Below, piece by piece: positions 2,640 to 48,078 of a stretch of DNA of 64,000 nt (the stretch's first letter is position 1; every line of letters begins with the position of its first letter). The translations under genes and the position numbers were made by a program. Source of the DNA: a plasmid; the sequence record NZ_CP033968.1. One strand, given 5' to 3'. The notes under the pieces were generated by a model that saw only the letters and a program-made list of their open reading frames with translations, made no database searches and was not told where the DNA came from.

Positions 2640-3074
2640 TTACTCCTTTAGGAAGAGCCCAGGCAGGATGCCAACTCCGGCACCCGAACGTAGCCTCTCG
2701 CAGTCTTGGCACCAGAAGGACTTCTTGTTACCCATCAACGTTGTGGTCAGCGGGTTCAGCCCAAGCACGAATGCGTCCTTACGGCTTGGCACCAAGATCA
2801 TGAACTCGTGCCCCTGGCTATCCCAACTCTTCCAGGTGACGTCGAACGTTCCGACGGACCCTGCCCATTGGCTGCTTGGGTCCTTCGTGACCTCGAGAGT
2901 TCCGGTTCCTTCCTTGGCATCACCACCGAAATTGTTGAGGGAGAGTTTCGCCGTGACACCGACAGAACTTCCCCCAAACATATTCGTCGCGGTGTACACC
3001 GCAGGCTTGTCCGAGCACGCAGAGACCCCAATGGCTCCAATGGCCACCAGCAGGGCGAGGAAGAGCTTTCTCAT
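2640..3074 (-). CDS. putative lipoprotein
   Basis: MRKLFLALLVAIGAIGVSAC is a signal peptide with a lipobox cysteine. The start at 3074 has a GGAG upstream; the track ORF runs further up to 3224. Confidence 0.5.
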   Translation of the reverse strand: MRKLFLALLVAIGAIGVSACSDKPAVYTATNMFGGSSVGVTAKLSLNNFGGDAKEGTGTLEVTKDPSSQWAGSVGTFDVTWKSWDSQGHEFMILVPSRKDAFVLGLNPLTTTLMGNKKSFWCQDCERLRSGAGVGILPGLFLKE

Positions 3075-3247
3075 GTATTTTTTCTCCGATAGGTTGGTTG
3101 GACGCAAGTTCATCGTCATGTCCTTGCGCGGAAGGAATGACTCACAGGAAGCCATAACTGGCGTCACGTATATGCGGTTGTCGGGCATCTCAGAGGGTCC
3201 TGCTATGCCGAATCGTCGGCACAACCTTCATTAACGGAGAGATACCC

Positions 3248-4821: not shown

Positions 4822-5617
4822 TCTTGAGAACATCGAACGCCGTAGCATTCGACCAAAGGGTGCCGAGGCACCGTTTCAAGACTGGGCCCATAGCTTTACC
4901 TGATTGGATTCGTCGACAGCAGTACGACGTTTCTAGGCTAGGTGTGCCTTTGCGACTCCCCACCAGTATGCACATGGCCGCTGTGTGATGGACTTTGCGT
5001 CCGGGGATAGTCATTGGCGCTTGCTCCCGTAGGGGGGAGCACTTGAGGGTTTGTATCTCTACGACCCATTCCTCCGTTGGTTCCGTGCGGAATCACGTGT
5101 TGTCCAACGCTCGGGAGACACCCGGCGTGCGACAGTTGTCGGTTCTCAGCGAATCCAGTGACCGAAGTCACGTTCATCTAAGACATCGGCGTGCATAGCC
5201 GTCGTCGAGCACACAAAACAATCACGTGGGAGGCGTTGGGGAAAGATACGCTCAAGCGGTGATGGGGCATTGCGCTGGCCCGTCACCCTAGATGACTACA
5301 AGGGAGGCGTCGCTACCTCGGATCAGCCTGGTGTCTCCAGTTCCTGCATCCGTTGAACCTTGCCCTTGGTGATGTGCAACATCCGCGCATACAGGGACTG
5401 GGCGGGTATGCCGTGTGACCTCTCCTTCTCCTTCCTTTCCTTCCTGTGCTGCAGCCTGCCTGTTCCTATCTTGCTGGGAGGGTGAGACCAGACCCGATGG
5501 GGAAGGGTGTCCGCGCCCGACCACCCACCGAAGCCGACCGGGGACAGTTGCTAATTCATGTGACTCATCTCTCCAGAGTCAAACAACAGCGGCGCTGCCG
5601 CCCCCTAGGAGCTTTGG

Positions 5618-5887
5618 ATGGACACTAACGAAACTCACTCTGGCGAAACGCGAATCGAGCGCATCACTGGCGGCCACAATCGCGTTCTCGTGCTGCATAC
5701 CAAGGACTCGGAAACCACCATTGTCATTCCGCCTGGTGTCAACGAGCACGATTGGATGGGACTGGAAGCCGAGCGGAACAGGCGAGAGGCGGCAAGTCTC
5801 TTCGATCGAGCACAGCAGCTGGCGGCTCGTGCTAAGCGGCTGGATTTGGCCGCCGGCTTGTGCAAGCCGTCAAATCCGTCGAACTGA
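5618..5887 (+). CDS. hypothetical protein (89 aa)
   Basis: AGGAG lies 6 nt upstream of the ATG. Confidence 0.45.
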   Translation: MDTNETHSGETRIERITGGHNRVLVLHTKDSETTIVIPPGVNEHDWMGLEAERNRREAASLFDRAQQLAARAKRLDLAAGLCKPSNPSN

Positions 5888-6096
5888 ATGGGGATCGCCT
5901 CGGCGATCGCTCCTCCTGTAACCGTGGTGCCCACCGAGTACCCTCTCACGAGGTACCGGTGGGTTTTTCTTTTCAGGGGACTCAAATGGCTACCAACTGC
6001 ATGAACTCGCCTCCCGCTCCGGCGCCGCGGCATCACCGCCACATGGCGTGTCCAAGCACCAATGAGAAAGGCCCCTCAAAGAGGGGCCGGTGGGAG

Positions 6097-6324
6097 TTAG
6101 AAGCCTTGCTGGGCCATGAGAGACCTAACAAGGGCGGGGGCCACACTGACGATGATGCCAATCAGTGCCAGTTTGAAGCCCAGAGACTGAGCGTCCAGAC
6201 TGGCCACGAATGCGCGAAGGTGGAAGGCGACAAAGACGACCTTGTACATGAAGTCAAGAATCTCTTTGGCTACCCACCCTGCGATGTTCGCGCCGGCGAT
6301 GATGATTTGGACGAATTTGTCCAT
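6097..6324 (-). CDS. small two-TM membrane protein (75 aa)
   Basis: The internal start MDKFVQIIIAGANIAGWV has a GGAG 9 nt upstream and is followed by two hydrophobic segments. Confidence 0.4.
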   Translation of the reverse strand: MDKFVQIIIAGANIAGWVAKEILDFMYKVVFVAFHLRAFVASLDAQSLGFKLALIGIIVSVAPALVRSLMAQQGF

Positions 6325-6514
6325 TGGTGCTGCTCCACGCGAGAGGTTGGCCGGCTTGCGCCGGGTGCCCGGGAAATGGGCCACCCACCGGATCGGGGGT
6401 GAGAGCGGCCAGCTCGCTGGTCTGGCGTTCGATCAAACTACTGAACTGCTCTCTCGCGTATAGCTAGGACGATTTGGACGCCTGCATCCGAACCACATTC
6501 CTTCAATCGGCTTG

Positions 6515-6850
6515 TCAAACCTGGCCTGTAGCCGCCGTTCTCAGGTAGCCGGCGTGATACGGGGCGCAGCCCATAATCCAGCGGCCTTCTAGTTCGAGGT
6601 CGTAGTCCGAGAACGACGTTCCCGACGCATTGCATCTGGCCTCGTTCTCGATGACGGCATCGAGGCGGACAATCTCTGTCTCATTAAGCGGTCGAATGCC
6701 TGTCTGGCGGGAGCTGCTAGCCCAAGCCTTGTACTCGGGAGTACCGTGCTCGTCGAGCCAATCTCGATGCTTGAACATCTCCCTGTCCGTGGTGAAGCCG
6801 AGGGCGACCGCTTCGTCGCTGACGCCTGAAATTGCTGCTTTTCCTGTCAT
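6515..6850 (-). CDS. hypothetical protein (111 aa)
   Basis: AAGGAG lies 7 nt upstream of the ATG. Confidence 0.55.
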   Translation of the reverse strand: MTGKAAISGVSDEAVALGFTTDREMFKHRDWLDEHGTPEYKAWASSSRQTGIRPLNETEIVRLDAVIENEARCNASGTSFSDYDLELEGRWIMGCAPYHAGYLRTAATGQV

Positions 6851-7037
6851 TTCGTACTCCTTCGAGTTGAACCGTGCAAGCTGATATGCCGCACACGAAG
6901 GAAGAAGGGCGAGACCTGCTCCGGCAAAAAAAGCCCGCTCCGGATGAACCGGCAGCGGGCTGGGCGGGAGTCAACGGGTGTATTGTTAAAGCCGACCAAG
7001 TTCGACGCTGCCGGGCAGCGGCAAATCGGGGTGAGAC

Positions 7038-8061
7038 CGTGATTCAGTTCCTTGCAGACCAGATAGACCAGCTCGACCTTGCTCTAGACCAGCTCGCGTT
7101 GCAGGATCGGAACTTTGACCGGTTCGCTATGATGCTGACGGACAATGTCGTCGAACTGACATTGCACCGGCATGCAGAAGACACTCGAGTACTTGAATCG
7201 GATCTGCGCCTTGGGGGCCAGACTCCAGGAATCGATCAGAAGATTGTGTCGGAAGCTTTGGGGGCGAGGTTCGACGGCAAGGTAAAGTTGGCGCGTACGA
7301 CCGGGCTGATTGATGCGGAATTGAGCGCGACGCTGCTTTATCTCCATGGTTTCCGGAATACTGCGTACCACCGCGGTGCCCGGCATGAGGGCGTTCTGCA
7401 TTCGGTTTCGCTCTTCTACGTGCGGTGCGCCTGCGAGATTCTTGCGCGGTACCAGCCCCTTGGGTGGTACTCAGCGAGCGGGGACAAGATCTCGCACCGC
7501 GCTGTGAAGTACCTTGGCTCCATGAAAGGAAAATTGCCAACCGAACCTTTCGGGCGCGCATGGGCCCAGATATCGGAAGTCGCACTGCATCTGGGGGACA
7601 GGCTCGTAGCTGATCTGCACTGCGACATGCAGAAGACTATAGAGACGTTCGCCGAAAGCCTGGGATTGCTTGCGCAGTACCCTGAGCCTGGTGGTACACC
7701 GCGCAGCACTGTGATCATTGAGAGTCAGGTGTGGCACGTTGCCTTTTCGTCCGTGGGGGAAGACTATGCTCGAGTCCACGGTGGACCGACGTCGCCGTCG
7801 GCTGACTACGTGCGCTGGATAGAAGCCAACTTCCCATGGATCGACCGCGTTGACCCGGTTCCGTCGTGGCGAAGGCGAGCCGCCACACTCGCGAAGGAAA
7901 AGAATCCGCATTCGGCCGTTAAGAAGTACTGCGACTTCATGCGGCAGTCTGAAATGTTGCGTGAAGCGATCGATGCGGCTGCTGCTCAGCTCAACGCCCA
8001 TCTGAACAACCTGGTGGATTCGTACCTCGAAGAACAGGCTCTTCAGCGAGGGAAGCCGTGA
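7038..8061 (+). CDS. hypothetical protein; the start is uncertain
   Basis: The body of the ORF reads like a real protein. The track start at 6874 precedes an A-run plus hairpin at 6925-6960, so I chose the GTG at 7038 with an upstream GGGGTGAG; the ATG at 7126 is also possible. Confidence 0.5.
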
Positions 8062-8098
8062 AGGAAAAAAATGAAAACGCCCCTTCGGAAAGGGGCGT
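8062..8098 (-). terminator. rho-independent terminator ending the leftward small-gene operon
   Basis: The hairpin acgccccttcggaaaggggcgt is followed on the minus-strand RNA by a uuuucauuuuuuu tract. Confidence 0.6.
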
Positions 8099-8110
8099 CA
8101 CAGCGGTTGA

Positions 8111-8284
8111 TTAAGCATCCTGAGCGGCGTCGCGCATCAGTGAAGTGGCCTCAGCGTACGAGAGCCCATTGTCACGATAGTAGAGCGCACCCTGATGGAT
8201 GGCGCCGTCGTGGCTGTAGCCTTCCTTGCGGTACTCGAGATACTTGTCGGTTGCCCGAGCGAGCTGTTCGAGGGTGAACTGCAT
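8111..8284 (-). CDS. small hypothetical protein (57 aa), absent from the ORF track because it is under 60 aa
   Basis: Hand translation gives MQFTLEQLARATDKYLEYRKEGYSHDGAIHQGALYYRDNGLSYAEATSLMRDAAQDA. A GAGG lies 6 nt upstream, and the terminator is immediately 3'. Confidence 0.4.
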   Translation of the reverse strand: MQFTLEQLARATDKYLEYRKEGYSHDGAIHQGALYYRDNGLSYAEATSLMRDAAQDA

Positions 8285-8332
8285 TTCTGCCTCACTTGGT
8301 GGTGCGTTGCAAAGCGCCGCGAGAACGACGGA

Positions 8333-8605
8333 CTAGAGTTGATATGCGATTGCCTGACGCAGGGCAGAGGCGTCCATGTAGGCGCCATGCTTCGCGATGT
8401 AGCGGCCGATTGCTACGTCCAGCTTGACTACTTTCAGCTTTCGCATGCTGTTCAATGCTCTGAACGCTTCTTCGCGAGTGCATCCCGTGATCTCCTGTAC
8501 TGTTTCCACGAAGTTCTCTTCAGCGTTCGCAATGCGTTGGGCGACGGGTTTCGCTCCAGGGAGCCGTGCGTTCTGGTGCATACCTGCCTTGGCCTTAGCG
8601 GTCAT
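8333..8605 (-). CDS. hypothetical protein (90 aa)
   Basis: GGAGG lies upstream, and the gene abuts the upstream ORF stop. Confidence 0.45.
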   Translation of the reverse strand: MTAKAKAGMHQNARLPGAKPVAQRIANAEENFVETVQEITGCTREEAFRALNSMRKLKVVKLDVAIGRYIAKHGAYMDASALRQAIAYQL

Positions 8606-8823
8606 CAGATGCCGCCTCCGTACCCAAGCTGGGACATGATCCAGTCGCAGACAAAGCGGCGCTTCACCTGATCAGCTTTCAGCTCCGAGTCCTCACCTGC
8701 TTCACGAATCACCACCGCTGCAATGTCACCGCGCGTGCGATCGTGGCCGACGGTAGGCAAAGAGCGAACAACTGCGCTGAAGACTCGCTTGCCCGCCGTT
8801 GCCTTGACTGCGTCAAAGTCCAT
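8605..8823 (-). CDS. hypothetical protein (72 aa)
   Basis: An ORF in an operon-like arrangement with its neighbours. Confidence 0.4.
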   Translation of the reverse strand: MDFDAVKATAGKRVFSAVVRSLPTVGHDRTRGDIAAVVIREAGEDSELKADQVKRRFVCDWIMSQLGYGGGI

Positions 8824-8885
8824 TTCTTTCCTTTGTGTTTCGACCGCAACGGCGGCCGTCGCATATGCCTGGTTGTCGATAATCG

Positions 8886-9116
8886 TCAGATCACTTGCCC
8901 ATGAAGAGCTTGAACCTCGCGATAGTTGTTGGCCATGTCATGAAGCCAGCACACCTTGATGCGTAGATCGTCCGATGAGGGAGACACGTCCCACTCAACA
9001 AGGCTGTAGCAATGCCCGCCTTCATCGAACACTCGTGCTTCTGAACTTCCCATGGAGATGCGGTTGAACCCCTTGTTTCTAAGAAATTTCTGAACGCGCT
9101 TCCCGTTTGCGGTCAT
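8886..9116 (-). CDS. hypothetical protein (76 aa)
   Basis: An AAGGGAAAG purine tract lies upstream of the ATG. Confidence 0.4.
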   Translation of the reverse strand: MTANGKRVQKFLRNKGFNRISMGSSEARVFDEGGHCYSLVEWDVSPSSDDLRIKVCWLHDMANNYREVQALHGQVI

Positions 9117-9175
9117 CGTTCTTTCCCTTGAATGTTGTGTTGTTCCATCGCCCGCCGAAGCGGGCGGGTCGGGTG

Positions 9176-9373
9176 CTAGATCTTGCGAACGGTACCGCTC
9201 GCGATGTTCCAGCCGTTAGGCGCGAAACCTTTGCGGTTTCCCCACTTGTCGCTTTCGATGAAGGAGCCGTCGTTCAGGTTGAACTGCTCGCCGCCATCCT
9301 GCAGCGGCTTTACGCTGCGAGAGTTGGCGCGAAGAAACGTGCTGGATTTCAAGATGAAGTCTTTGGCCTGCAT
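9176..9373 (-). CDS. hypothetical protein (65 aa)
   Basis: The internal start MQAKDFILK has a GAAGGGAA 8 nt upstream; the track ORF is longer, running to 9451. Confidence 0.4.
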   Translation of the reverse strand: MQAKDFILKSSTFLRANSRSVKPLQDGGEQFNLNDGSFIESDKWGNRKGFAPNGWNIASGTVRKI

Positions 9374-9414
9374 TTCTCGATTCCCTTCGCCCGGGTTTGC
9401 GGGCAGATTTGTGG

Positions 9415-9954
9415 TTAGCGTTCCGCGGATTCGCCGTCGATCTCGAAGCAATATGGGTTGCTCTCGTCCGTGGAGACTTCCGCGAGGATCGGCTCGCCGT
9501 TAGGCCATGAACCAAGGTTGGCGGAGTTGCCTTGAATACGGTCGAGCAACTTGATTGCTTCCGCCTTGCTGGTGGCCTTGACGCGCACCGCGCAGGACAG
9601 CCGTACATCAAACGCGTACTCGTGAATCTCTGTCGTAGTACCGATGGTCACCGGGTCCGTCGACATGTCGGTCAGTGCGGTCGCAAAGTAGTGACCGTAT
9701 GCCAGCGGATCGGGGTCACTTGGCATCGAAACCAGGAATAGCAGTTCATCGCATTTGGCCAATCCGTTGACCTCCATGCCGACGGCTGCAATGGAGACCC
9801 GTTGGCCGCGGTACTTCTCCAGGTTGGGCAGCTTCTGAATTGCCTCGTCAGAGAAACGAGCCGATTTGAGACTGGCAGCAAATGCAGCTGCCTTGCTCGG
9901 GTCCTTGAAAATGCTGTCTGCTCCGCAGACGAGTTTGTTGCGGGCTTCTGCCAT
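9415..9954 (-). CDS. hypothetical protein (179 aa)
   Basis: AGAGGAGAG lies 4-5 nt upstream. Its 5' region is copy 1 of the duplicated cassette. Confidence 0.55.
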   Translation of the reverse strand: MAEARNKLVCGADSIFKDPSKAAAFAASLKSARFSDEAIQKLPNLEKYRGQRVSIAAVGMEVNGLAKCDELLFLVSMPSDPDPLAYGHYFATALTDMSTDPVTIGTTTEIHEYAFDVRLSCAVRVKATSKAEAIKLLDRIQGNSANLGSWPNGEPILAEVSTDESNPYCFEIDGESAER

Positions 9955-10059
9955 GGATCTCTCCTCTTGAAGGTTGGACTTGCATGAGGCAATGAGACAC
10001 AGGCAAGACTATGTGCCAGCGGAAAGGAAAACGCCCCTCACTGGCTGGCCAGGAGGGGC
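9952..10059 (-). repeat. copy 1 of a ~110-bp intergenic cassette (terminator hairpin + promoter-like segment + RBS + ATG)
   Basis: It is about 80% identical to 10729..10838. It has an identical 24-nt 5' end catggatctctcctcttgaaggtt and an identical hairpin cccctcactggctggccaggagggg with a T-rich tail on the minus strand. Confidence 0.6.
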
Positions 10060-10082
10060 GGGGGAGTTGGGAGGTCAGAGCA

Positions 10083-10253
10083 TCAAGCCGTGTTGGAGGG
10101 CTGGTCGACGCAGAGCTCCTCGAAAGCCGGGCAGCTTTCAACTTCATCTACGTCTTCGGTTGGCCAGTTCTTCGAGCACTGGCTCAACTCTCCAGGCCTG
10201 TACGTGCAGTGCGCGCAGGTCGCGCACAGATCATCATCGGAAATTGAGCGCAT
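10083..10253 (-). CDS. small Cys-rich protein (56 aa), absent from the ORF track
   Basis: Hand translation gives MRSISDDDLCATCAHCTYRPGELSQCSKNWPTEDVDEVESCPAFEELCVDQPSNTA. AAGGAG lies 9 nt upstream, and the cassette hairpin lies 3' of the gene. Confidence 0.45.
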   Translation of the reverse strand: MRSISDDDLCATCAHCTYRPGELSQCSKNWPTEDVDEVESCPAFEELCVDQPSNTA

Positions 10254-10285
10254 TTTTCTCGTCTCCTTGCGTGGTGTTCCGTGGT

Positions 10286-10510
10286 TCAGTGGCCGCCGAG
10301 TAGCGCGGGTTGTGGTTCGGCAGTGAGGCTAGCCTTGTATTGACGGGCAAGCTTGAGGCTGTACGACGCGTTCGCCCGTGTTCTGTCCGCCAGCCAGGTT
10401 CCGGCCAGTTGGCCGCGCGCCCGGTGGATGCGAGCCCAGCGGGCGAGATATCGAGCGTCACGTACGAGCCACTCAATAGCCTCGCGGATTTCAGCCTGAG
10501 TCATGGTCAT
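10286..10510 (-). CDS. hypothetical protein (74 aa)
   Basis: An ORF whose start overlaps the stop of the upstream gene. Confidence 0.45.
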   Translation of the reverse strand: MTMTQAEIREAIEWLVRDARYLARWARIHRARGQLAGTWLADRTRANASYSLKLARQYKASLTAEPQPALLGGH

Positions 10511-10731
10511 CCCCTTGCCTGGTGACCCGGCTCAGACTTGCCCAGGTTGATGAGCGCCGCGCGAAGCTCGTTGTGGTCCATGCGGTTGATAGCTACTTGT
10601 GCCTCGATCTTCCGCTCCAGCGGCAAGAGCGCGTGGATGTTCGCCTTCAAAACCTTGCGCGCCGTTTCGCAGAATTTGATGGCGTCCAGGCCTGCTTGGT
10701 TCGGACTGTGTTGGCTGGGGATTTGTGGCAT
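10507..10731 (-). CDS. hypothetical protein (74 aa)
   Basis: Its start sits inside copy 2 of the cassette, with the same RBS as the gene at 9415..9954. Confidence 0.5.
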   Translation of the reverse strand: MPQIPSQHSPNQAGLDAIKFCETARKVLKANIHALLPLERKIEAQVAINRMDHNELRAALINLGKSEPGHQARG

Positions 10732-10838
10732 GGATCTCTCCTCTTGAAGGTTTATCTTGCAAGAGGCAATGAGACACAGGCGGGACTAAGCGTAGACGGG
10801 AAGGGAAGAAAAACCCCTCACTGGCTGGCCAGGAGGGG
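10729..10838 (-). repeat. copy 2 of the ~110-bp terminator-promoter-RBS cassette
   Basis: See copy 1 at 9952..10059. Confidence 0.6.
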
Positions 10839-10845
10839 GTGGAGG

Positions 10846-11235
10846 CTAGTTGGCAGGTACGATCCGGAGCGTGAAGGTATCCGGAAGCTTTCGCCCGAGG
10901 ATGACGGAGGCGCACTGTCGGAATCGCTCCGACCAGGCTCCGGTTGTTCGGCGCCCGCTAGGTGCGCAGATCTTCCAGGCAGTTTCAATCTGGTCGTGCT
11001 GATCCTGAGTGACTTCGATGATCGAAGCGATTTCCTTCTCAATCCACGCGTCCGCAACTTCCACAGCGCGGCAGCGCGATGATTCGGTTCCCGCCGCGAC
11101 CCAGTCGCCGCCGATTTCGCCTAGGACTTCAAACGTGCCAAGGATTCTGTTGGACGGTACGGCATGGATTACGCGAACGACGATTTCGCCCTCGACGCGC
11201 GAATACACTTCAGTTCGCTCTACTTGGTTCGGCAT
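10846..11235 (-). CDS. hypothetical protein (129 aa)
   Basis: GGGAG lies 7 nt upstream. Confidence 0.5.
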   Translation of the reverse strand: MPNQVERTEVYSRVEGEIVVRVIHAVPSNRILGTFEVLGEIGGDWVAAGTESSRCRAVEVADAWIEKEIASIIEVTQDQHDQIETAWKICAPSGRRTTGAWSERFRQCASVILGRKLPDTFTLRIVPAN

Positions 11236-11350
11236 CAGTTACTCCCTACGGGTTGGTTTGCAGAGGAGTAATGCGGCGCATGTGGGAATAACCGCGGTGC
11301 CGTAGTCGCGGGCAGGGGCACGCTGATGTGCAGGTGCCCGCAGGGCGGAC

Positions 11351-11620
11351 CTATCCATTGCTTCCACTGAACGGATTGGGTGCAACTCCCGGGGGTGCCA
11401 CGGCAACTTGATCTGGCAACGGCCCGGCCTCGAGCGAAGCGACAATCAGGTCGAGGTTTGCTTTCAATGCCTTTGCCATGCTGAGGCCCGCTTTGTCCCT
11501 TGTCAGGTCTAAGCTTCCATAGATGGATACGCGATCAAGGCGGTTCTCGATGGTCATCTCGCCGATGGCTACGACCTCGGACTCGTTTGCAAACGGGCTG
11601 AGCGTTTGTGAGGTGGACAT
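11351..11620 (-). CDS. hypothetical protein (89 aa)
   Basis: The internal start MSTSQTLSPF has an AAAGGA 7 nt upstream and abuts the upstream gene stop. Confidence 0.45.
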   Translation of the reverse strand: MSTSQTLSPFANESEVVAIGEMTIENRLDRVSIYGSLDLTRDKAGLSMAKALKANLDLIVASLEAGPLPDQVAVAPPGVAPNPFSGSNG

Positions 11621-11621
11621 C

Positions 11622-12221
11622 TCAGATCCTTTGTTCGGCCTTGCCGAGCTTTGGGGCGATCGCCTTTGCCTTGGCGACAACGTTGGTCCCGGGAATGAAG
11701 TCGTGCAGGAACTGGCCGTTTGCACTCATCAGGGGGATGAGAAGCAGCAGGCCAGCCACTGCAGCGAGGAAAGCCGGCGAAGCGATGAAGAGGAGGCAAG
11801 TCAGGGTAACCACCTTCATCGCACTTCGCAGCAGAATTTCCCCAAAGCGCAGCTTTCGGTCGGCCGCGCTGCGCGTGGCCAGTCGGAACAGCCACTTGCC
11901 GGGAGTTCCTTCCATCCGCAGCTTGGCAAACATTGATTCGTAGGCCCACCAGATGGCGGGGAGGCCGGCCATCACGTATGGCGCGATACCTCGCGCGATC
12001 GCTTCGTACCAGGCAAAAGTCAGGTGGTCAGCAGGCACACCCGCAAAGATCACCTGCAGCTGCTCGGCTGACGGCATATCCATCATCATCGCCGCTATCC
12101 ACGCTGCACCGATGGTTGCTGCGGCCACTACCGCTGCGAGGATACATGCATCTACGGCATTTGCGCCCAGCCGCCTACTGATGAGCAGGACCCTTGGCAG
12201 GACGTTTCGTTTCGTGATCAT
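11622..12221 (-). CDS. RDD-family membrane protein
   Basis: It has multiple TM segments, and the motif EGTPGKWLFRLATRSAADRKLRFGEILLRSAMK resembles the RDD family core. AGGAA lies 8 nt upstream. Confidence 0.55.
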   Translation of the reverse strand: MITKRNVLPRVLLISRRLGANAVDACILAAVVAAATIGAAWIAAMMMDMPSAEQLQVIFAGVPADHLTFAWYEAIARGIAPYVMAGLPAIWWAYESMFAKLRMEGTPGKWLFRLATRSAADRKLRFGEILLRSAMKVVTLTCLLFIASPAFLAAVAGLLLLIPLMSANGQFLHDFIPGTNVVAKAKAIAPKLGKAEQRI

Positions 12222-13075
12222 TGGGAATTTCCTATCGCGTGAGTAGTTGTGCTGCCCGGGAAAAGGTCTTTCAGGACCCGCTCGGCAGATTTTTCGATCC
12301 CCCGATCCGATCTGCCGCGGAGTTCGGGGCGGGGGAGGGGGAGCTTCGATGCCTTGGCTTCTGCCGGCAAACTTGGGAAGAAGACCAAGCCGGCCATCGC
12401 TTCAAGCTCAGGGAGTGAGACGACCTCGTAGGCTGTCCCGGGTTCGTTGTTGACAACGTAGGCCGCTCCCTTCTGTGCGGCTGGGTCGAAGACGACCTTG
12501 AAAATTCGGTCCGGGACCAGGACGCGCCCATTGAGCTGTTTGACCTTGGCGCCGGTGAAGAGTGGGCCGGTGATGACATAGAGCGAGCCGCGACGCTCGA
12601 CAAGGTTGCGGACAGCCATCTCGATTCCGGCAAAAAGGTGGCGGTTGTTGTCCGGGTCCTGAGCGACGATGTTGCTGAGTGTGAAGCTCTCATACCGGGC
12701 CTCGGGAGTGCTCATGTCGCCACTTGGGGCGAGGTGACCTCGGTCTAGCCCCGACCGTGCAAAGTCCGCTAGTTCGGCGCGGTCCTTGGATGGGAGGCGC
12801 GAATCAGGGTGAAACGCGTCCGCCCGCTGCAGCGATCGGGCGGCGCGAATACGCGAAGGCGTGAGATGTTCCGCCGACCAGATAGCCGCACGGCTTAGGG
12901 GCGAATGCATGACGGCGAACTCGGTAAAGCAGAGCTCCGTAGCGCCCTGCGCCAGGCGGGCGTTTGCGACGATAGGAGCCGTGCCCTGGTAGTAGCTTCG
13001 CGCGCAGGCTGGGTCTTGGGCGTACCCCGGGATTGCCAGCACGCACAGCAGGGCGGCGAGCAGGTGCGATTTCAT
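12218..13075 (-). CDS. secreted DNA/RNA non-specific endonuclease (Serratia NucA / EndoG family)
   Basis: MKSHLLAALLCVLAIPGYA is a signal peptide, and DRGHLAPSGD matches the DRGH catalytic motif. I chose the ATG at 13075; the track start is a TTG at 13114. Confidence 0.8.
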   Translation of the reverse strand: MKSHLLAALLCVLAIPGYAQDPACARSYYQGTAPIVANARLAQGATELCFTEFAVMHSPLSRAAIWSAEHLTPSRIRAARSLQRADAFHPDSRLPSKDRAELADFARSGLDRGHLAPSGDMSTPEARYESFTLSNIVAQDPDNNRHLFAGIEMAVRNLVERRGSLYVITGPLFTGAKVKQLNGRVLVPDRIFKVVFDPAAQKGAAYVVNNEPGTAYEVVSLPELEAMAGLVFFPSLPAEAKASKLPLPRPELRGRSDRGIEKSAERVLKDLFPGSTTTHAIGNSQ

Positions 13076-13587
13076 CGTAATCTGGTCCTCTTTGGCGGCT
13101 CGTACACAGTGCAAGGAGAGATCCCCTGGCCAATGCGTGCAGGAATGAAGTTGGCAAGTTGAGATGCGTCATCGACCCAGCCGGCCAATCCTCCGTTCTG
13201 CGCCACGTTCTGAAGGAATGCCCATTGATCGTCGGTGGGCTCCTTTCCCGGGCGCTTCACTTCCACAGCGAAGAATCGACCATCTTTCAGTTGTCCGACG
13301 ATGTCTGAGACGCCAGGGATAGAGAACCGGACAAAGCGCTTCTGATCCCCTTCGCCGTACACAGCCACGCCTGTGTTCATGCGCATGACCCAAGCAACGC
13401 TGGGATGCTGCTCGAGCAGCTCCATGCATGCCAGCAGTACTTTGGTTTCGCGCGGCGACGGCGGATCGGTCGGCTTCGCTCTCGCCGCCCGCTTCGTGGG
13501 CTTCTCCTGGGGAACCACCGGCGTGCTGGTCTTCTGAGCACGACCGAGCAGCGCCTCGTACTCCTTCTCGCTGAGCCGTTTTCCCAT
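13072..13587 (-). CDS. VRR-NUC domain nuclease (PD-(D/E)XK)
   Basis: SDIVGQLKDGRFFAVEVKRPGKEPTDDQWAFL matches the VRR-NUC core. Its stop overlaps the start of the downstream endonuclease (ATGA). Confidence 0.7.
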   Translation of the reverse strand: MGKRLSEKEYEALLGRAQKTSTPVVPQEKPTKRAARAKPTDPPSPRETKVLLACMELLEQHPSVAWVMRMNTGVAVYGEGDQKRFVRFSIPGVSDIVGQLKDGRFFAVEVKRPGKEPTDDQWAFLQNVAQNGGLAGWVDDASQLANFIPARIGQGISPCTVYEPPKRTRLR

Positions 13588-13589
13588 TG

Positions 13590-14180
13590 CTAGCCGAACA
13601 TGTCGCCAAGTTTTTCCAGTGCTTCGAGCGCTACGGGGTCGATGCTCTGGGGGCTCGCCGGCGCCGGATGCGCGGCTGGGACGGTTCCAGGGTTTGCGGC
13701 AACGGCAATGGCAGGGGGCACGATCGTGGCAGGCGTTTCCGCTTCCTCCATACCCTGCGCGAGAAGTGGTTGGATGGGCTCGACCACTGTTTCGCGCAAG
13801 GGTGGTGGTTGCTCCGCCGGCGCCTCTGCTACCGGAGACGGGGTAGCAGGACGGGCAGCCGGCCGGGCTGAAATTGCGCGGGGCTTCAGCACCCTGGCAG
13901 AGCGTCCCTTGGCGCCTCGGCGCACCTGCTTGTCGTGCGGTGCGGATTCGATGAGACCCCCGGGACCAGCCAGTGCCTCCTCAATGGCGTCATCCAATGT
14001 TCCTGCATCCCGGTGCTTGATGAACCACTGATACAGGACGCCCCGGATGAGAGGGGTTTCGGTCCGGTATGGCATTTCTGCGAGGAACTCCAGAGCCCCG
14101 GGGCAGGTTGCCTCCGCGATCACCAGGTTGATGCGCCGCTCCGGTTCGTCTGGGTCGAACACCCGGATGAGCTTAGGCAT
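13590..14180 (-). CDS. hypothetical protein immediately downstream of the parM-like gene; possible ParR-type adaptor
   Basis: The assignment rests on position in a parMR-like arrangement only. There is no motif evidence, and the C-terminal half is Pro/Ala-rich. Confidence 0.45.
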   Translation of the reverse strand: MPKLIRVFDPDEPERRINLVIAEATCPGALEFLAEMPYRTETPLIRGVLYQWFIKHRDAGTLDDAIEEALAGPGGLIESAPHDKQVRRGAKGRSARVLKPRAISARPAARPATPSPVAEAPAEQPPPLRETVVEPIQPLLAQGMEEAETPATIVPPAIAVAANPGTVPAAHPAPASPQSIDPVALEALEKLGDMFG

Positions 14181-15201
14181 CTACGGTTTCCTGTTGGCTC
14201 TGCCGCTTCATCGCTTGGCGCAGCGCCACGCCCATGCCGTAACGGCCGAAGCCATTGGCTACTGACATGCGGGGGTTGTCAAGGAGAATGCAGTGCGACC
14301 ACTTCTTCTTGATTTCCTCATAGAGCAGCGGGGCGCCACCGCCGGCCAGGATCACGCCGTGCAACTTCCGCACGTCCATGGACAGCAAGGAGTCGGCCTT
14401 GGCGTTGATCTTCTGGGCAACGTGCGAGACCGCCTTTGCAACTTCTTCGGAGATGTCGATTTCTTGACCAAACTGCAAAATCGATTTGGTCCGGATCGCG
14501 GTTTCGCACTCGATGAGATTCGAGTGAATCCCGCGGCCATCGAGAATGCGTACCAGATGCTCCGCGGCGAAATTCAGCCCTTCGCATGTGCCGGCGCCGC
14601 GTTCAACGTACTGCCCTTCGAGCATCAGCAGAAAGTCGGTCGTGAAGTGGCCGACTTCGATGACAGCCCAACTCTTCGTCCGCCCGGATGCGTCAGTGAT
14701 ATGACTCCGGATCGGGAGCCCCTTTTCGTCGAGGTAGAAGTCGCAATACGCGCCCATCGGTTGGGGCAGGACCCGCATCTCGGCCTTAACGACACGTTCC
14801 GTGACCTCTTTGAGCCGAGCTTGCTGGGAAGAGAACAAGTTCGCTGGGGTACCGATCACCAGAAGCGGCTTGTCGAGGCCCGGAACCCCCATGGCTTCAA
14901 AGCGCTTCATGGTCGAGGCGACCAACACCTGGTACTCGGGGGTGTTGATCCAGTCGTTCGACAGGCCGGCATTGGCGCCGGGGCTGCCCTGCAACCGAGC
15001 AGTGTCGCCCGTGAAGAACTGCTTTCCCTCGATTTCGACGGTTTCGATGGCGGCTCGTCGAGCGGTCGTCTCGTCGGAGATCCCGATGGCGGGCGAGACG
15101 ATGGAGGGGAAGGTGAGGGGGTAGGACTCGCCTTGGGCAAAGGCGACGGCCTTGACGGCGCTACGGCCCACGTCGAGGCCAATGATGGTTTGGGTCAGCA
15201 T
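14173..15201 (-). CDS. parM: actin-like segregation ATPase (ParM/StbA family)
   Basis: The N-terminus IIGLDVGRSAVKAV is the phosphate-1 motif of actin-fold ATPases, and the protein is of ParM size. I chose the internal start MLTQTIIGLDVG; the track ORF extends to 15345. Confidence 0.75.
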   Translation of the reverse strand: MLTQTIIGLDVGRSAVKAVAFAQGESYPLTFPSIVSPAIGISDETTARRAAIETVEIEGKQFFTGDTARLQGSPGANAGLSNDWINTPEYQVLVASTMKRFEAMGVPGLDKPLLVIGTPANLFSSQQARLKEVTERVVKAEMRVLPQPMGAYCDFYLDEKGLPIRSHITDASGRTKSWAVIEVGHFTTDFLLMLEGQYVERGAGTCEGLNFAAEHLVRILDGRGIHSNLIECETAIRTKSILQFGQEIDISEEVAKAVSHVAQKINAKADSLLSMDVRKLHGVILAGGGAPLLYEEIKKKWSHCILLDNPRMSVANGFGRYGMGVALRQAMKRQSQQETVDA

Positions 15202-15436
15202 GAAATTCTCACAGTGCAGAGTCGAAAAGGCCCCGCAACCGGGGCCGGCCACCGATGCGCAATCCGCTGTGCGCAATGTGTACTGCTCATTGTTCACTGC
15301 AGATACCGCACCTGTTACGCGTCCGCATTTTAGAATACATAACACGTATTGACAAGACGACTGTAGCGAACGGAGAATTGCCCCCCCGGGGTTGTTTACG
15401 CAATGTGATAAGCAACCCCCAAAGGACGCTTAATAC
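15202..15436. promoter_or_regulatory. divergent control region upstream of parM; candidate centromere/promoter
   Basis: It contains direct repeats of GCGCAATGTG/ACGCAATGTGA, two G/C hairpins, and the AACACGTATTGACAAG motif. Confidence 0.35.
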
Positions 15437-15961
15437 ATGGTGCGTAACCAACCCCCCGAGATCGACGATTTTGCAGTTGCCCTGACCGCGGCCCGAAAGG
15501 CGGTCGAGGAGACGGAAAACCTTATCCGAATCATTGATTCAACCCTCGAACGTATTGATTCCCTGATGTACGTGATGCAGCCGTTTCAGTCCGGCCGAAT
15601 TGGCATAAAGCGGGTGTTCAGTAACGGGAGATTGCGCTGGCAAGTGCGAATCTTTCGGCAGCTCCGTAGCCGCAAGTGGGTCTCCTCGTTTGCGAGCCAC
15701 AAGGGGTTGCGGCGCCGCGTGAAGCGTTCCCGGGAGTGGGAGGCAAACTACAAGTTCCTGCAGTTGCTCTGCGATCGAGTCACCCTGCTGTTTGAGTTGC
15801 GGTCGCAAGCGGTGGACCGGCTCTGGCGTTTCTCGCATGGATCGACCCGTTCCACCAGGGCCCGAGAGGCTGCGATAAGCGACACGGTCGCCCTAGTGGA
15901 CGGGCTGCTGGAGCGGATCGAGGCACGGTTCGAAGGCGATATGGAACTTGAGGACGAATAG
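15437..15961 (+). CDS. hypothetical protein (174 aa)
   Basis: AAAGGA lies upstream of the ATG. The ORF is clean, ends in an acidic tail, and has no recognised motif. Confidence 0.5.
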   Translation: MVRNQPPEIDDFAVALTAARKAVEETENLIRIIDSTLERIDSLMYVMQPFQSGRIGIKRVFSNGRLRWQVRIFRQLRSRKWVSSFASHKGLRRRVKRSREWEANYKFLQLLCDRVTLLFELRSQAVDRLWRFSHGSTRSTRAREAAISDTVALVDGLLERIEARFEGDMELEDE

Positions 15962-17522
15962 GCTAAGCGGGATCAATGCCGACCAAGGCCCTGGTGCAGA
16001 GACTGTGCCGGGGCTTTTTCTTTATGGGTAGCGAGTGTCTCGGCCGGGCCGGATATTGGGCGAAGATTGGATTGAGGCGGACGTAGAGGAGATAGCTGCC
16101 AGGCGGAGGTCCTGTGGGGAGTCGGGATTTCTGCCACGCGGGGTATTGGGCGGAGGGAGTCCTGGGCTCTGTGCGATGGGAGACGGGACTGGCTCTGGCG
16201 GGATCTCGGGTTTGGCCTGTTCTGCGGCTTTGCGTAGTGCGCTGTTCTGCGGGCGGGTGGATGGGCTGGTTGTCTCACTCTGCCGACCGGTGGTCGTTCT
16301 CTCGCCTGCGCGGGTGTCCGCCTTGTTCCCTTGTTCTCTCTCTGTCCGATTGGGCGGCCGGTGGTCCTGTGCTTGTTGCGGTGGGGCGGGGAGGTAGCCG
16401 GCGATGGCTTGGTGCGGAGTGAGCTTGGGCGCGGAGTGAGAACTTCGGTTGGCGGTGGCTTGGGTTTGGTGTCCCTCGGCGGCCCGTGGTCCGCCGGAGG
16501 CTTTGGTGTCGCCGGCGCATCAGCGCGGGCCCCGTGAGGGGCTATGGTTCTGCCGACGGGATAACTATTTGTCCTGCCGGGGCTCGTTCTGGTGGTGTGC
16601 GGGCTGGGCTTGTGCGCCCTCCTGCGTCGGGGTTGTTGCGCCGCCGTGAGCATAACCATTTGTCCTCTTCCTTCCTTGTGTCGCCGCGGGATCTCGCTCC
16701 CTGTTCTTCCTGAGAGCCGGGTGCGCTGCTGCTGTCCTGCTGCCGGGGCGGGATTGGGCTGCTCCTTCTTGCCCGGTCATCTCTCACCGGAACTGTGGAT
16801 GGGATCGAATGGATCTAATGGATGAAGGGGAGGGGCGGCCGGTGTCGTTCTGCCGATGGCGTGTCGGGGAGCCGGGTGGATCTGTCGGCGGGGCGGAGGT
16901 CTTGGGCTGGGGTGGTTGTTCTGCTGGCGTGGGAATGGTGCTGGTGGTGGATGGTTGTGGCGCTGGGTGGCTGGTTCTGTCGGCGGGGGATCGGGTGGAG
17001 CGGCGTTGTGCTGGCGGGAGACTGATGGTGTTGGTTCTGAGAGTGGCGGCGGTGCGGTGGTGGTGTCAGGCGGAGTGAGAAGTTTCGCTGGCGATGGTGC
17101 GAGAGAAGTCGGGTATGAGCTCGGATCGAGTGGGGCTGGTGTATCGGCAGGCGATGGCGTGGGTGAAGTCGGGTATGGGCGGGGCGGGGGCGGGAGATTG
17201 GCTGGCGATGGCGTGTTGCGGTGTGGTTGTTGGGCAGGCGGTTGTTTTGGCCGTGTGGGGGAGGGCTGGCGTACCTGGTGCCGTAGCCGCCGGCGCCGTG
17301 GGGGCGACGCCCGGCGAAGCCGGGCTGGGGTGTTGCCCCGGGGTAAATGTTTGGCCGGAGGGCTTCTCTTGGGCGCTCCCCTGTGGGTAAATGGTTGCCC
17401 CTGCTACCGGGTTCTATGACCGGCGTCGGTGAGTAAATGCTTGGCCGTTGCTGTTTCGCTGGTCTGGGTGCGGTGTATGTTGGTGTTGCTCTACCCATGC
17501 GTAACACGTATGCATAATTTGC
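15962..17522 (+). repeat. ~1.5 kb non-coding GT-skewed repeat-rich tract
   Basis: The top strand is roughly 50% G, 30% T, 13% C and 5% A. Imperfect direct repeats include GCGATGG(C/T)G at least 5 times, gttctg(c/t)(c/g)g at least 6 times, ATAAC(T/C)ATTTGTCCT twice and GTAAATGNTTG(G)CC four times. Only low-complexity P/R/H- or G/W-rich ORFs occur in any frame. Confidence 0.55.
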
Positions 17523-41151: not shown

Positions 41152-41538
41152 AGCGTAGCAAAGTGCGTTGCATCACTACTTGTCCTCTCGGCTGTCACAG
41201 GCTGCGCAATGACGCAACAGGAATTGGCGCACGAACCGCCAAATGCAAAATTTGTCGTGGCTGCAGAGTTCGGATGTCTCTATGAAAAGGGCGCCGAAAG
41301 AGCTGCTGCCAGCTTGGGCGTGAGCGAACCGAAGATGAGCGGCTACATTAGCTCCAAAGGCGGCTACGCATGGTTCCGACAACCGCTGACCTTGATCATG
41401 CTGCGTTCCAAAGGCGCCGGCAGCACTGAGATCACGCGACAGCAACACGGAAGCGCGGCGGTCCTAGGCCAAGGCGAAGACATGCTTGCTTACTTGAAAT
41501 CGAATCCATGTGTGGTCGATCCCCAGCGCCCAGAGTAG
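41152..41538 (+). CDS. putative lipoprotein (128 aa)
   Basis: MSVAKCVASLLVLSAVTGC is a signal peptide with a lipobox. Confidence 0.5.
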   Translation, partial: SVAKCVASLLVLSAVTGCAMTQQELAHEPPNAKFVVAAEFGCLYEKGAERAAASLGVSEPKMSGYISSKGGYAWFRQPLTLIMLRSKGAGSTEITRQQHGSAAVLGQGEDMLAYLKSNPCVVDPQRPE

Positions 41539-46503: not shown

Positions 46504-48078
46504 ATGCGCCAAGTTACCCAAGCTGATTTTCTTGCCCGCGCGCTCGAGGTGCACGGTGACCGCTACGACTACAGTCGTGCCATCTACAGTGGTTCAAATT
46601 CCAAACTCACCATCGTCTGCCGCACTCACGGGCCTTTTGAACAAACGCCCAGCAATCACTACAAGGGAAAGGGCTGTCGAGCTTGCGCCGGCGTCCAACC
46701 GTACACACTGCAGTCATTCGTTGACCGAGCGCGATCGCTCCATGGCGATCGGTATGGCTACGCCGAAGCCTTGCTGGTCAACGCACTGACCCCGCTCACA
46801 ATACGCTGCTCGGTACATGGGCTGTTCGAGCAAACGCCGCGTAGACACCTGTCCGGCGGCGGTTGCCCAAAATGTGCGATCACGCTTGGCGCAGATCGCC
46901 AGCGCGGTACGGCCGATAGCTTCATTGCCAAAGCCCATTCGGTGCATGGGGATCGATACGACTACAGCCGCGTCGCATATGCCGCGACGCACACGAAGGT
47001 TGTAATTGTCTGTCCCGAGCACGGGCCTTTTGAGCAAACCCCTGCGGCCCATCAGCGCGGCGCGGGCTGCCCAGCGTGCGCGGGCGTGGCTCGATTGGAC
47101 ACGAGTTCATTTGTCGCCCGCGCACGCGCAATCCATGGGCAGCGATTCGGATACGAGCGCACGGTGTATAGCAGTACGGCCAGCAAGCTCGTCGTGACCT
47201 GTCCGGAACACGGCGACTTTGAGATCCACCCGAGCGTGCACCTACGAGCAAATGGAGGTGGCGGCTGTCGATCGTGTATGGCCGAGCGTTTGTCTACGCG
47301 ATTCAGCAGAGGGACGGCTGGCTTCGTCGCCGACGCCCGCAAGGCGCACGGCGACAAGTACGACTACAGCGCAGTAGAGTATGTGAACAAGGAGCTCGAG
47401 GTTGTCATCGCTTGCCCGGTCCATGGTGAATTCCGCCAGCGGGCCGGCGTGCACATCACGGGCGGCGAGTGCCCGGCGTGCAGCTACGCCAAGCGCGGCG
47501 ATAAGCAGCGAATGAGCGAGGGCGAGTTTCTGGGGCGGGCGCGAGCCGCGCACGGTGACAGATACGACTACGGCCTCCTGAGCTACGCTGGCATGCACGA
47601 CTACGTGACGATCGTGTGCCCGGAACACGGCCCTTTTGAGCAAGTCGCAAACAGCCATATGCGGGGATGTGGGTGTCCAAGCTGCGCCGAACACGGGTTT
47701 GACCCCGACCAACCAGCCACGGTCTATGTCCTTGTCGTCATTGGTGACGAGGGTGGCTTTACCGGGTATGGCATCACGCGGGATCTGGACACCAGGCTGC
47801 GTGCACATCGGAAAAATCTGTCCGACGCCGGTTGGACTATCGCCAGGCTACATTTCGCAGAATTTGCGCATGGCCGAGACGCCCTCGACGTGGAGGCGTT
47901 GATCAAAGAGACCTTCGAGCTGACTGCTCAGGAGATCGATGGCTTTCGCACTGAGGCGACCCATCCGTGCAACTATGAGAAGATCATTCGGATCGTCGAC
48001 GAGCGTAAGCGGAAATGCAAAGGCGGAACATCAGTTGGACAAACTCAAATACAAGATCAAGGCGGCCAAAATCGCTAA
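46504..48078 (+). CDS. protein with six tandem ~50-aa zinc-ribbon modules and a C-terminal T5orf172/GIY-YIG-like domain
   Basis: The module HGDRYDYS..V.Y......KV.IVCPEHGPFEQTP..H..G.GCP.CA is repeated six times. The tail VYVLVVIGDEGGFTGYGITRDLDTRLRAHRK fits the T5orf172 pattern. Confidence 0.7.
   Translation: MRQVTQADFLARALEVHGDRYDYSRAIYSGSNSKLTIVCRTHGPFEQTPSNHYKGKGCRACAGVQPYTLQSFVDRARSLHGDRYGYAEALLVNALTPLTIRCSVHGLFEQTPRRHLSGGGCPKCAITLGADRQRGTADSFIAKAHSVHGDRYDYSRVAYAATHTKVVIVCPEHGPFEQTPAAHQRGAGCPACAGVARLDTSSFVARARAIHGQRFGYERTVYSSTASKLVVTCPEHGDFEIHPSVHLRANGGGGCRSCMAERLSTRFSRGTAGFVADARKAHGDKYDYSAVEYVNKELEVVIACPVHGEFRQRAGVHITGGECPACSYAKRGDKQRMSEGEFLGRARAAHGDRYDYGLLSYAGMHDYVTIVCPEHGPFEQVANSHMRGCGCPSCAEHGFDPDQPATVYVLVVIGDEGGFTGYGITRDLDTRLRAHRKNLSDAGWTIARLHFAEFAHGRDALDVEALIKETFELTAQEIDGFRTEATHPCNYEKIIRIVDERKRKCKGGTSVGQTQIQDQGGQNR

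Follow-up and report, generated by a model that had tools for sequence, protein, structure and literature searches.

The 64,000-nt stretch of plasmid record NZ_CP033968.1 analysed here (the window, to which all coordinates refer unless another record is named) belongs to a pMOL30-type Cupriavidus megaplasmid and carries two copies of a short upstream module, here called cassettes A and B, each placed directly before the start of a small gene. Over the region concerned, NZ_CP037902.1 (C. metallidurans, 364 kb) and NZ_CP043439.1 (C. campinensis MJ1, 347 kb) are 100% identical, and the plasmids from strains Ni-2 and EM10 are ~95% identical; no phage match to the region was found. These plasmids are typed as conjugative (MOBP/MPF_F) and have their replicon cluster and many backbone proteins in common with pMOL30 of strain CH34. 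The genes for tra functions, ssb and the type IV coupling protein lie ~100 kb off, so the cassette locus is not in the leading region, and the replication and parAB genes are found ~35 kb from the locus, across the record origin.

Both cassettes lie inside an array of 7 kb whose genes are all on the minus strand. In the direction of transcription, this array comprises parM, a 196-aa open reading frame (ORF), VRR-NUC, an EndA-like nuclease, an RDD protein, ORFs of 88 and 129 aa, cassette B, two 74-aa ORFs, a 56-aa Cys-rich ORF, cassette A, and ORFs of 179, 65, 76, 72, 90 and 57 aa. Neighbours mostly overlap or stand a few bases apart; gaps of more than 110 nt number only three, two of them being the cassettes. 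A strong sigma-70-type promoter (TTGTCA-17-TAAAAT; 15327..15355, minus strand), scoring 13.3 with a position weight matrix (PWM) against a background 99th percentile of 10.8, sits 120 nt upstream of parM and is presumed to be the source of the transcripts that arrive at the cassettes. The parM leader also holds a terminator-like hairpin, GGCCCCGGTTGCGGGGCC, with TTTT (15246-15225, minus strand), a possible attenuator ahead of the entire array. A canonical terminator identified by the terminator scan (8076..8099, minus strand) closes the array after the 57-aa ORF. Pfam, PHROGs and NCBIfam returned no match for eight small array proteins; among the array proteins scanned, domain matches were confined to RDD, VRR-NUC (below cutoff) and, for the 65-aa ORF, one weak PHROG without an assigned function.

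Cassettes A (~9933-10078) and B (~10710-10858) are paralogous copies of a repeat of ~146 nt. Their mean column identity was 87% when aligned with MAFFT, and ungapped repeat finding gave 79% across 98 nt, rising to 93% for the 30-nt block of the hairpin. Three perfect blocks, a 25-nt hairpin (CCCCTCCTGGCCAGCCAGTGAGGGG), a 19-nt core (GCCTGTGTCTCATTGCCTC) and a 24-nt block with the ribosome-binding site (RBS; AACCTTCAAGAGGAGAGATCCATG), are separated by stretches of ~50% identity, a patchiness that favours constraint or conversion over uniform decay. Each block occurs exactly twice in the window, the chance expectation being 0.00-0.02 even with 3 mismatches allowed. According to the ORF list, copy A ends at the ATG of the 179-aa ORF (9415..9954, minus strand) and copy B at that of a 74-aa ORF (10507..10731, minus strand); homology enters each ORF by ~22 nt, and the two downstream proteins have no homology to each other. 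On its upstream side the repeat reaches 12-18 nt beyond the hairpin, into the last codons (VPAN*) of the 129-aa gene in copy B and into non-coding sequence in copy A. A first-pass annotation, made from the sequence of the window, had described a pair of ~80% identical repeats, each ending at a leftward start codon and sharing an identical RBS end, a conserved core and an identical hairpin. All of these features were recovered at the positions it gave, with an identity (80-87%) far beyond chance, although the repeat proved to be longer than it had drawn. It had also placed a Cys-rich ORF with an AAGGAG sequence between the copies; that ORF is present (10083..10253), but it is one of three minus-strand genes there (10083..10731), the others being the 74-aa ORF at 10507..10731 and a second 74-aa ORF at 10286..10510, which overlaps it by 4 nt. 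All three are kept in the Ni-2-type plasmid.

Close copies of the cassette were found in four PLSDB plasmids, two per plasmid, and also in one GTDB species genome (Cupriavidus sp. 2SB) and one metagenome contig, with only four sequence variants among these sources. Exact-word scans of genome and metagenome collections otherwise returned chance matches only, including those in Azospira. Every plasmid that has the locus has kept both copies, and, as both occur in both locus-bearing plasmid lineages, the duplication predates the lineage split. The 74-aa protein has only two homologues and therefore offers no comparative leverage.

For the hairpins, the anatomy is that of intrinsic terminators. 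In cassette B the hairpin (CCCCTC-CTGG(CCAG)CCAG-U-GAGGGG; 10814..10838, minus strand) begins 8 nt after the stop codon of the 129-aa gene (10846..11235), has a dG of -16.9 to -17.9 kcal/mol (z = -2.8) and a d'Aubenton-Carafa-type score (d) of 28, and is followed by the U-tract TTTTTCTT (10806..10813, minus strand), read directly, with a tail score of 4.4. The cassette A hairpin (10032..10060, minus strand) consists of the 25-nt core (10034-10058) with two extra G-C pairs, has a dG of -22.7 to -23.7 kcal/mol and d = 26, starts 24 nt after the stop codon of the Cys-rich ORF and is followed by TTTTCCTTT (10031-10023). Across the four variants, stems are 10-13 bp with dG values of -17 to -25 kcal/mol and z values of -2.8 to -5.0, and d is positive throughout (11-28, where the array-end terminator scores 5.2 by the same method). 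Where the variants differ, the changes affect the loop or an internal loop, or they contribute an additional pair; in the Ni-2-type plasmid the cassette A hairpin differs in its loop alone (CCAG to UAAG). A stricter built-in terminator scan did not list the cassette hairpins, presumably because of the bulged stem or the interrupted T run. An antisense RNA or plus-strand terminator was considered and rejected, the hairpin being without a T run on the plus strand. By stem, U-tract and score, both hairpins can be accepted as predicted rho-independent terminators, in line with the first-pass annotation.

Downstream of each terminator, the 19-nt core was found to be part of a conserved 23-nt box, yTTAc-N8-cTGT-N4-CAT, which is followed by an arm that pairs with the gene's own Shine-Dalgarno (SD) sequence. 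The box is GCTTAGTCCCGCCTGTGTCTCAT in cassette B (10769..10791, minus strand; CAT at 10771-10769; family profile E = 1.8e-7) and ACATAGTCTTGCCTGTGTCTCAT in cassette A (9992..10014, minus strand; CAT at 9994-9992; E = 1.1e-7), and its best-conserved columns are T-17 (12/12), A-16 (10/12), G-6 (12/12) and T-5 (11/12). The predicted RBS-occluding hairpin of cassette B (10740..10766, minus strand; minimum free energy (MFE) -19.3 kcal/mol, z = -2.5) has a 5' arm CCTCTTG (10766-10760), the loop CAAGATAAACCTT (10759-10747) and a 3' arm CAAGAGG (10746-10740) that overlaps the SD sequence GAGGAG. This 7-bp perfect complement has p = 0.02 by shuffling, and outer pairs (GUCUC/GAGAU and GC.UG/CA.GC) extend to the AUG, giving a 19-bp imperfect hairpin overall. 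The 24-nt block at 10729..10752 (minus strand) contains the SD sequence and the start codon of ORF 10507..10731. In cassette A, the corresponding hairpin (9963..9989, minus strand; MFE -19.5 to -20.8 kcal/mol) pairs a 5' arm CCTCATG (9989-9983, with one A.A mismatch) across the loop CAAGTCCAACCTT with a 3' arm CAAGAGG (9969-9963), and the 24-nt block at 9952..9975 (minus strand) ends on the start codon of the 179-aa ORF. Its loop sequence CAAGTCCAACC is the family consensus, and differences between the copies are concentrated in the apical loop (AUA, UUA, UCC).

No described counterpart of this leader was found in the literature. Rfam gave no match at gathering score in the whole window, and at E <10 the region 9300-11400 contained a single irrelevant match, to RT-15 on the other strand (14.5 bits against a gathering score of 82). 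Two further candidates were discarded: a leader peptide (TTG-CCT-CTT-GCA-AGA-TAA) can be read in copy B only, and core sites of an integron attC element (GTTRRRY or RYYYAAC) were not seen.

The box and leader were then found not to be private to the two cassettes. For nhmmer profile searches, the 347-kb plasmid NZ_CP043439.1 was used as a sequence assembled from its annotated stretches. A profile of the four cassette variants returned weak extra matches, all just upstream of gene starts. Eleven instances follow one design: the box yTTAc-N8-cTGT-N4-CAT, a 9-10-nt arm, GCAAG(U/A)nCAACC, a variable stretch, an SD sequence and AUG, with 37-49 nt from CAT to start codon. No conserved block was seen further upstream of the box. 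A profile of the eleven instances gave 36 matches at E <3 on NZ_CP043439.1; in our own check against the annotation, ~19 of the ~25 new ones precede an annotated start by 15-90 nt and have the orientation of the gene, where chance would give ~4%. Members are found on both strands, and profile search of pMOL30 gave ~10 more. Judged by sequence, cassettes A and B are the two youngest members of a family of ~35 upstream modules, and no other member comes near the identity (80-87%) that these two have with each other. A count of copies, which the first-pass annotation had proposed, gives two close copies per plasmid and ~35 diverged ones on the 347-kb plasmid.

The window contains two other members. 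A third, diverged terminator-box-leader unit (6848..6960, minus strand; profile E = 0.11, terminator d = 42) consists of the hairpin GCCCGCTGCCGGTTCATCCGGAGCGGGC (6960-6933), a run of seven T, CAT at 6888-6886, the SD sequence AAGGAG and the ATG at 6850 of a 111-aa ORF (6515..6850). A member without a terminator (3072..3157, minus strand; E = 0.0044) has the box AGTTATGGCTTCCTGTGAGTCAT with CAT at 3139-3137, a GCAAGG motif, the SD sequence GGAG and an ATG at 3074 in frame with ORF 2640..3224.

Pairing between arm and RBS was examined across the family. Perfect complements of 6-7 nt between the arm and the SD or start sequence were seen in five independent members (CCTCTTG/CAAGAGG, CTCCGGG/CCCGGAG, CTCCTGT/ACAGGAG, CCCATAG/CTATGGG and CTCTCC/GGAGAG), with a combined Fisher p = 1e-4 by arm shuffling, and in a pMOL30 orthologue a C-to-U change retains a G.U pair. 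RNAalifold found no consensus structure in the MAFFT-aligned members, a null result attributable to arms that are out of register, and permutation tests of duplex energy were used in its place. For these, the 13 nt that follow the C of CAT were paired with the SD-to-start segment in 32 independent members. Arms paired with their own segment gave -7.37 kcal/mol, versus -6.03 kcal/mol after re-pairing, and none of 20,000 re-pairings was as good (p = 5e-5). Covariation of arm and RBS therefore exceeds generic anti-SD content. The conserved centre, GCAAGUCCAACC, between arms that vary yet remain complementary, is the reverse of what is expected of a protein operator and points to an RNA stem with a recognised loop.

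No sigma-70-type promoter was found in either cassette: the best PWM scores on the gene strand were 0.5 (B) and 1.8 (A), where the median best score is 3.4 per 180-nt piece of the window. The built-in promoter scan agreed, and on this strand the 11 kb from 5000 to 16000 contain one site scoring >7, the one upstream of parM. The same holds for the family, in which the 150 nt upstream of the boxes are, if anything, short of such sites, with a median best sigma-70 score of 2.6 and 1/36 scoring >=7. The claim of the first-pass annotation that each copy restarts expression was accordingly not borne out in the form of a sigma-70 promoter; a restart may nonetheless occur, since at other places on the plasmid, too, the conserved box is found behind terminators. 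A hairpin resembling an intrinsic terminator lies <=130 nt upstream of 14/36 boxes, compared with 5/300 random segments. One family terminator ends 25 nt before CAT, the unit at 6960-6848 is placed behind two terminators and a convergent ORF, and several members stand in the short gaps (118-224 nt) between divergent genes, with no sigma-70 promoter there. That the box has start or licensing activity we consider an even proposition.

Other promoter types were also compared with the box. For sigma-54, the TGGCAC-N6-TTGC of copy A is one base too long and is missing from copy B. The conserved positions or spacing do not fit sigma-32, extracytoplasmic function sigma factors or the RfaH ops element, as judged by eye from their consensus sequences. 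A plasmid-encoded phage-type RNA polymerase was sought in a 917-aa ORF (window 29176-31929, plus strand) and rejected, this ORF having neither a Pfam match nor the polymerase-type DxDGD motif.

Published expression data for strain CH34, which lacks the cassettes themselves, cover the members on pMOL30. The motif genes there are nearly silent, with NPKM values of 1-17, whereas parB and Rmet_6055 reach 250-294 (Grosse et al. 2022, PMC9045368 suppl. 1). One '5UTR' entry begins 3 nt before a CAT (42121 vs 42124); others do not fit. An apparent start-site match at 41403 (Maertens et al. 2020, PMC7563307) is a chromid coordinate and was discarded. The silence of the motif genes would fit repression in established cells.

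Taken together, these observations can be arranged into a mechanism of four steps. Transcription from the parM promoter would be stopped or strongly attenuated at the G+C-rich hairpin and its U-tract. Expression of the next gene would then be set by the 23-nt box, for which a compact, factor-dependent, non-sigma-70 start or licensing site is the most likely role, itself an evenly balanced call, and which would be a silent site in the established plasmid. RNA from about the CAT onward is predicted to fold at once, the arm after the CAT pairing with the gene's own SD sequence and start region while the apical loop displays GCAAG(U/G)..AAC(C). As the SD and start region are paired, translation would need a second input, which would open the hairpin. 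The signal stands before ~35 genes or operons on the 347-kb plasmid and ~10 on pMOL30, which argues that the units behind the cassettes belong to one regulon and are not a private pair. The first-pass annotation had suggested an insulated pair of identically regulated genes; with the same strong RBS, the two downstream units very probably do share regulation, only not as a pair of their own. The analysis shows the sequences, the anatomy of the terminators, the lack of a sigma-70 promoter, the family and the covariation of arm and RBS; how efficiently transcription terminates, whether the box has start activity and whether a trans-acting opener exists are matters of inference. That the cassette as a whole is an insulated, RBS-occluding expression module and part of a plasmid-wide regulon signal, acting by these four steps, we regard as a balanced judgement that could fall either way.

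A wider claim, put forward tentatively and rated somewhat short of even, is that pMOL30-type Cupriavidus megaplasmids carry a hitherto undescribed expression signal used plasmid-wide, either a new compact promoter class or a new cis-regulatory leader RNA whose conserved loop GCAAGUCCAACC serves as the handle for one trans-acting regulator. At least 30 backbone genes would be kept silent in established cells and released together, for example after transfer or under stress; the terminators would insulate each unit, and a promoter class of this kind would be read by a plasmid- or host-encoded factor.

Several results weigh against the four-step mechanism. The cassette A fold is no better than its shuffles (z = -0.3), the four cassette variants contain no compensatory change, and two single substitutions, giving one mismatch per lineage, weaken the copy A stem, so the pair alone cannot prove the structure. 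In the wider family all arms are anti-SD-like, and part of the pairing signal is therefore generic; arm-RBS complementarity is at chance level in ~4/10 well-scoring members, and the RNAalifold result belongs here also. As for the box, it matches no known promoter consensus among those testable, and a strong sigma-70 promoter lies 80-88 nt upstream of one member, where the box would simply be in the leader. No start site is listed at the ~10 pMOL30 members (Grosse et al. 2022, PMC9045368 suppl. 1).

A rival explanation does without any promoter. In it, one long operon led by parM contains both cassettes, leaky termination at the hairpins steps expression down, and box and hairpin act purely as RNA, forming a 5' leader through which a small RNA or a protein controls translation or mRNA stability. 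The single strong promoter at the head of the 7-kb array and the canonical terminator at its end would suit such an attenuator with a translational gate, as would the absence of sigma-70 promoters from the cassettes, the nearly constant spacing of box and ATG (37-49 nt in 11 members), the covariation of each arm with its own RBS, the member ~80 nt past a strong sigma-70 promoter and the lack of mapped start sites at the pMOL30 members. It does not readily account for members that upstream transcription cannot reach, such as the window unit behind two terminators and a convergent ORF, for those that stand between divergent genes 118-224 nt apart where there is no sigma-70 promoter, or for the terminator that ends 25 nt before CAT; nor does it give a role to the 5' half of the box (TTA, TGT), for which no pairing partner was found. 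We consider it unlikely, if still a serious competitor.

Two further explanations fare less well. If the module were a promoter-operator bound by a plasmid repressor, as in ArdK/CUP or Reg576, the inverted repeat would be its operator. Repeated modules upstream of co-directional units on a conjugative plasmid are what such a system would provide; the near-silent motif genes fit repression of the zygotic-induction type (p576, PMC6294495; pKM101 proposal, PMC5371602), and CTTGCAAG in copy B is an 8-bp palindrome. Here, however, it is the arms that vary and GCAAGUCCAACC at the centre that stays constant, where a protein operator would show the reverse, -35 and -10 elements are lacking where CUPs carry core promoters, and the locus is ~100 kb from tra and ssb and outside the leading region, all of which make this explanation improbable. 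The remaining one takes the pair for a neutral relic without a special regulatory role, left by segmental duplication or recombination and including a terminator and an RBS by chance. It would explain why there are only two close copies, why homology extends into flanking coding sequence at both ends and why the region is mosaic between plasmids. It is very hard to reconcile with perfect blocks of 25, 19 and 24 nt set among ~50% identity, with the retention of both copies in every locus-bearing plasmid, and with the same design, diverged, at ~35 other gene starts, and we give it scarcely any credence.

Modular gene acquisition, also suggested by the first-pass annotation, is plausible on circumstantial evidence. 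Relative to the Ni-2-type plasmid, divergence is 0-1% upstream of cassette B and 3-12% downstream of it, and an indel and a deletion flank cassette A. Ni-2-, EM10- and 2SB-type plasmids lack window 6034-9766 (3.7 kb), which truncates the 179-aa gene to 77 aa, and have an extra 74-aa gene (L002 4314-4538) between the Cys-rich ORF and the cassette A hairpin. A 209-bp relic of the 179-aa gene, at 99.5% identity, is found on pMOL30. These arrangements are consistent with cassettes that mark a recombination-prone, cargo-swapping stretch.

With regard to the neighbouring genes, conservation of the 179-aa protein (9415-9954) elsewhere is limited to its C-terminal ~70 aa (HEYAFD..RVKA..ANLGxWP.G.PILAEVS..EIDGE), a domain that is fused to varied N-termini in unnamed proteins. 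The 56-aa Cys-rich ORF (10083-10253) has no entry in the plasmid gene tables consulted, of which the PLSDB table is incomplete. It is a real gene of a widespread unnamed family: 206 homologous cluster representatives were found at E <=1e-3, as stand-alone proteins of 55-100 aa or as C-terminal domains, with the signature SISDDDLCxxCxHCxYxPGExSxC..WP..YV..C. Pfam gave no match to this family, ten longer homologues included, and in the Ni-2-type plasmid the start codon is GTG. The unit of the 111-aa gene (6848-6960, minus strand) overlaps the 5' end of a plus-strand 395-aa ORF (6874-8061, no Pfam match), which makes the start or the reality of that ORF doubtful. For ORF 2640-3224 (minus strand), the box at 3157-3119 and a good SD sequence favour ATG 3074 as the start, and a protein beginning there has an N-terminus (MRKLFLALLVA) that resembles a signal peptide; the annotation, with its start near 3188, has probably placed it 38 codons too far upstream.

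Two further sites on NZ_CP043439.1 resemble parts of the module. At 287640-287800 (minus strand) there is a third, diverged copy of the whole cassette, with the hairpin GCCCCTCCTGGTTCGCCAGCGAGGGGC and a box ~90 nt downstream; it adjoins an IS3 element, has no obvious downstream ORF and may be disrupted. At 99625 (plus strand) an isolated CAAGTCCAACTT without box or SD sequence lies between minus-strand genes, and a minus-strand transcript there would carry the complement of the family loop, which makes it a speculative candidate for a trans-acting RNA. Elsewhere in the window, four 38-nt repeats at 46612-47648 (plus strand) fall in a 524-aa ORF with DUF723, treble-clef and zinc-ribbon matches and probably encode a repeated protein domain, and two short direct-repeat families at 17087-17215 (30-34 nt, 54-60 nt spacing), upstream of a UvrD-like helicase gene, could be iteron- or centromere-like.

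In large environmental megaplasmids the backbone encodes mostly 'hypothetical proteins', and one signal before dozens of these genes would define a regulon, which in turn would account for the near-silent motif genes of the model strain CH34. Grosse et al. left a 'non-RpoD-dependent' class on horizontally acquired DNA without assignment, and the box would join this class if it proved to be a promoter for a non-RpoD form of the polymerase. A duplicated cassette is modest alone; it gains weight as the lead to an unrecognised plasmid-wide signal in a model metal-resistance plasmid family. The module would offer an experimental handle in a genetically tractable organism, and in annotation the motif helps to locate genuine start codons as well as small genes that have been overlooked. 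Within ~130 nt it unites a natural terminator, a control box and a gated RBS, which would make it a compact insulated expression part for synthetic biology.

Several known systems share part of this design. Phage T7-type units begin with compact promoters, followed by 5' stem-loops and a strong RBS, and are separated by intergenic terminators or RNase III sites; here, too, a box of ~23 nt precedes a 5' hairpin and a strong SD sequence at a fixed distance, in repeated, terminator-separated units. Unlike in such phages, a single-subunit RNA polymerase was not found, and the box is unlike the T7, T3 and SP6 promoters. Frpo/ssi elements, in which a long stem rebuilds -35 and -10 on the transferred strand only, are likewise plasmid-borne hairpins upstream of early genes, in leading regions. 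The present stems, in contrast, are of 7-19 bp without promoter hexamers, members are found on both strands, and tra and ssb are ~100 kb off. Leaders that sequester the SD sequence include RNA thermometers (ROSE, fourU) and leaders activated by small RNAs (rpoS/DsrA), and the pairing of a pyrimidine-rich upstream arm with SD sequence and start codon is common to these and the family described here. The latter differs in having no Rfam match, in a hairpin (~-19 kcal/mol) far more stable than typical thermometers, in the conserved apical GCAAGUCCAACC, and in its spread over dozens of unrelated plasmid genes instead of one class.

With the Reg576 regulon of the Bacillus plasmid p576, the family has in common a short motif at several clustered plasmid genes. 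In Reg576, a 7-bp heptamer flanks canonical sigma-A promoters and the regulator is a ribbon-helix-helix protein; genes of p576 are off in established cells and de-repressed after transfer, and the PardC576 leader has inverted repeats with predicted RNA stem-loops (PMC6294495). Neither a canonical promoter nor a regulator was identified here. The CUPs of IncN plasmids are modules of >400 bp with a core -35/-10 promoter and an ArdK-binding site (PMC5371602, PMC6294495). Like the present modules, they are repeated at the 5' ends of several units of the same orientation on a conjugative plasmid, and the logic is shared as well: CUPs are thought to put many accessory or establishment genes under one regulator, with recombination between copies rearranging gene content. 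The description of CUPs nonetheless sets them apart from a close repeat of ~146 nt with a family core of ~60-75 nt and no sigma-70 promoter; the cassette locus, moreover, is not next to oriT and tra, and the constancy of the centre between arms that vary suggests structure at the RNA level. The silence of the motif genes resembles the zygotic-induction logic that was shown for p576 and proposed for the CUP regulon of pKM101. The CUP repeats and the Reg576 regulon are thus the closest analogues of the family, and both act at the DNA level.

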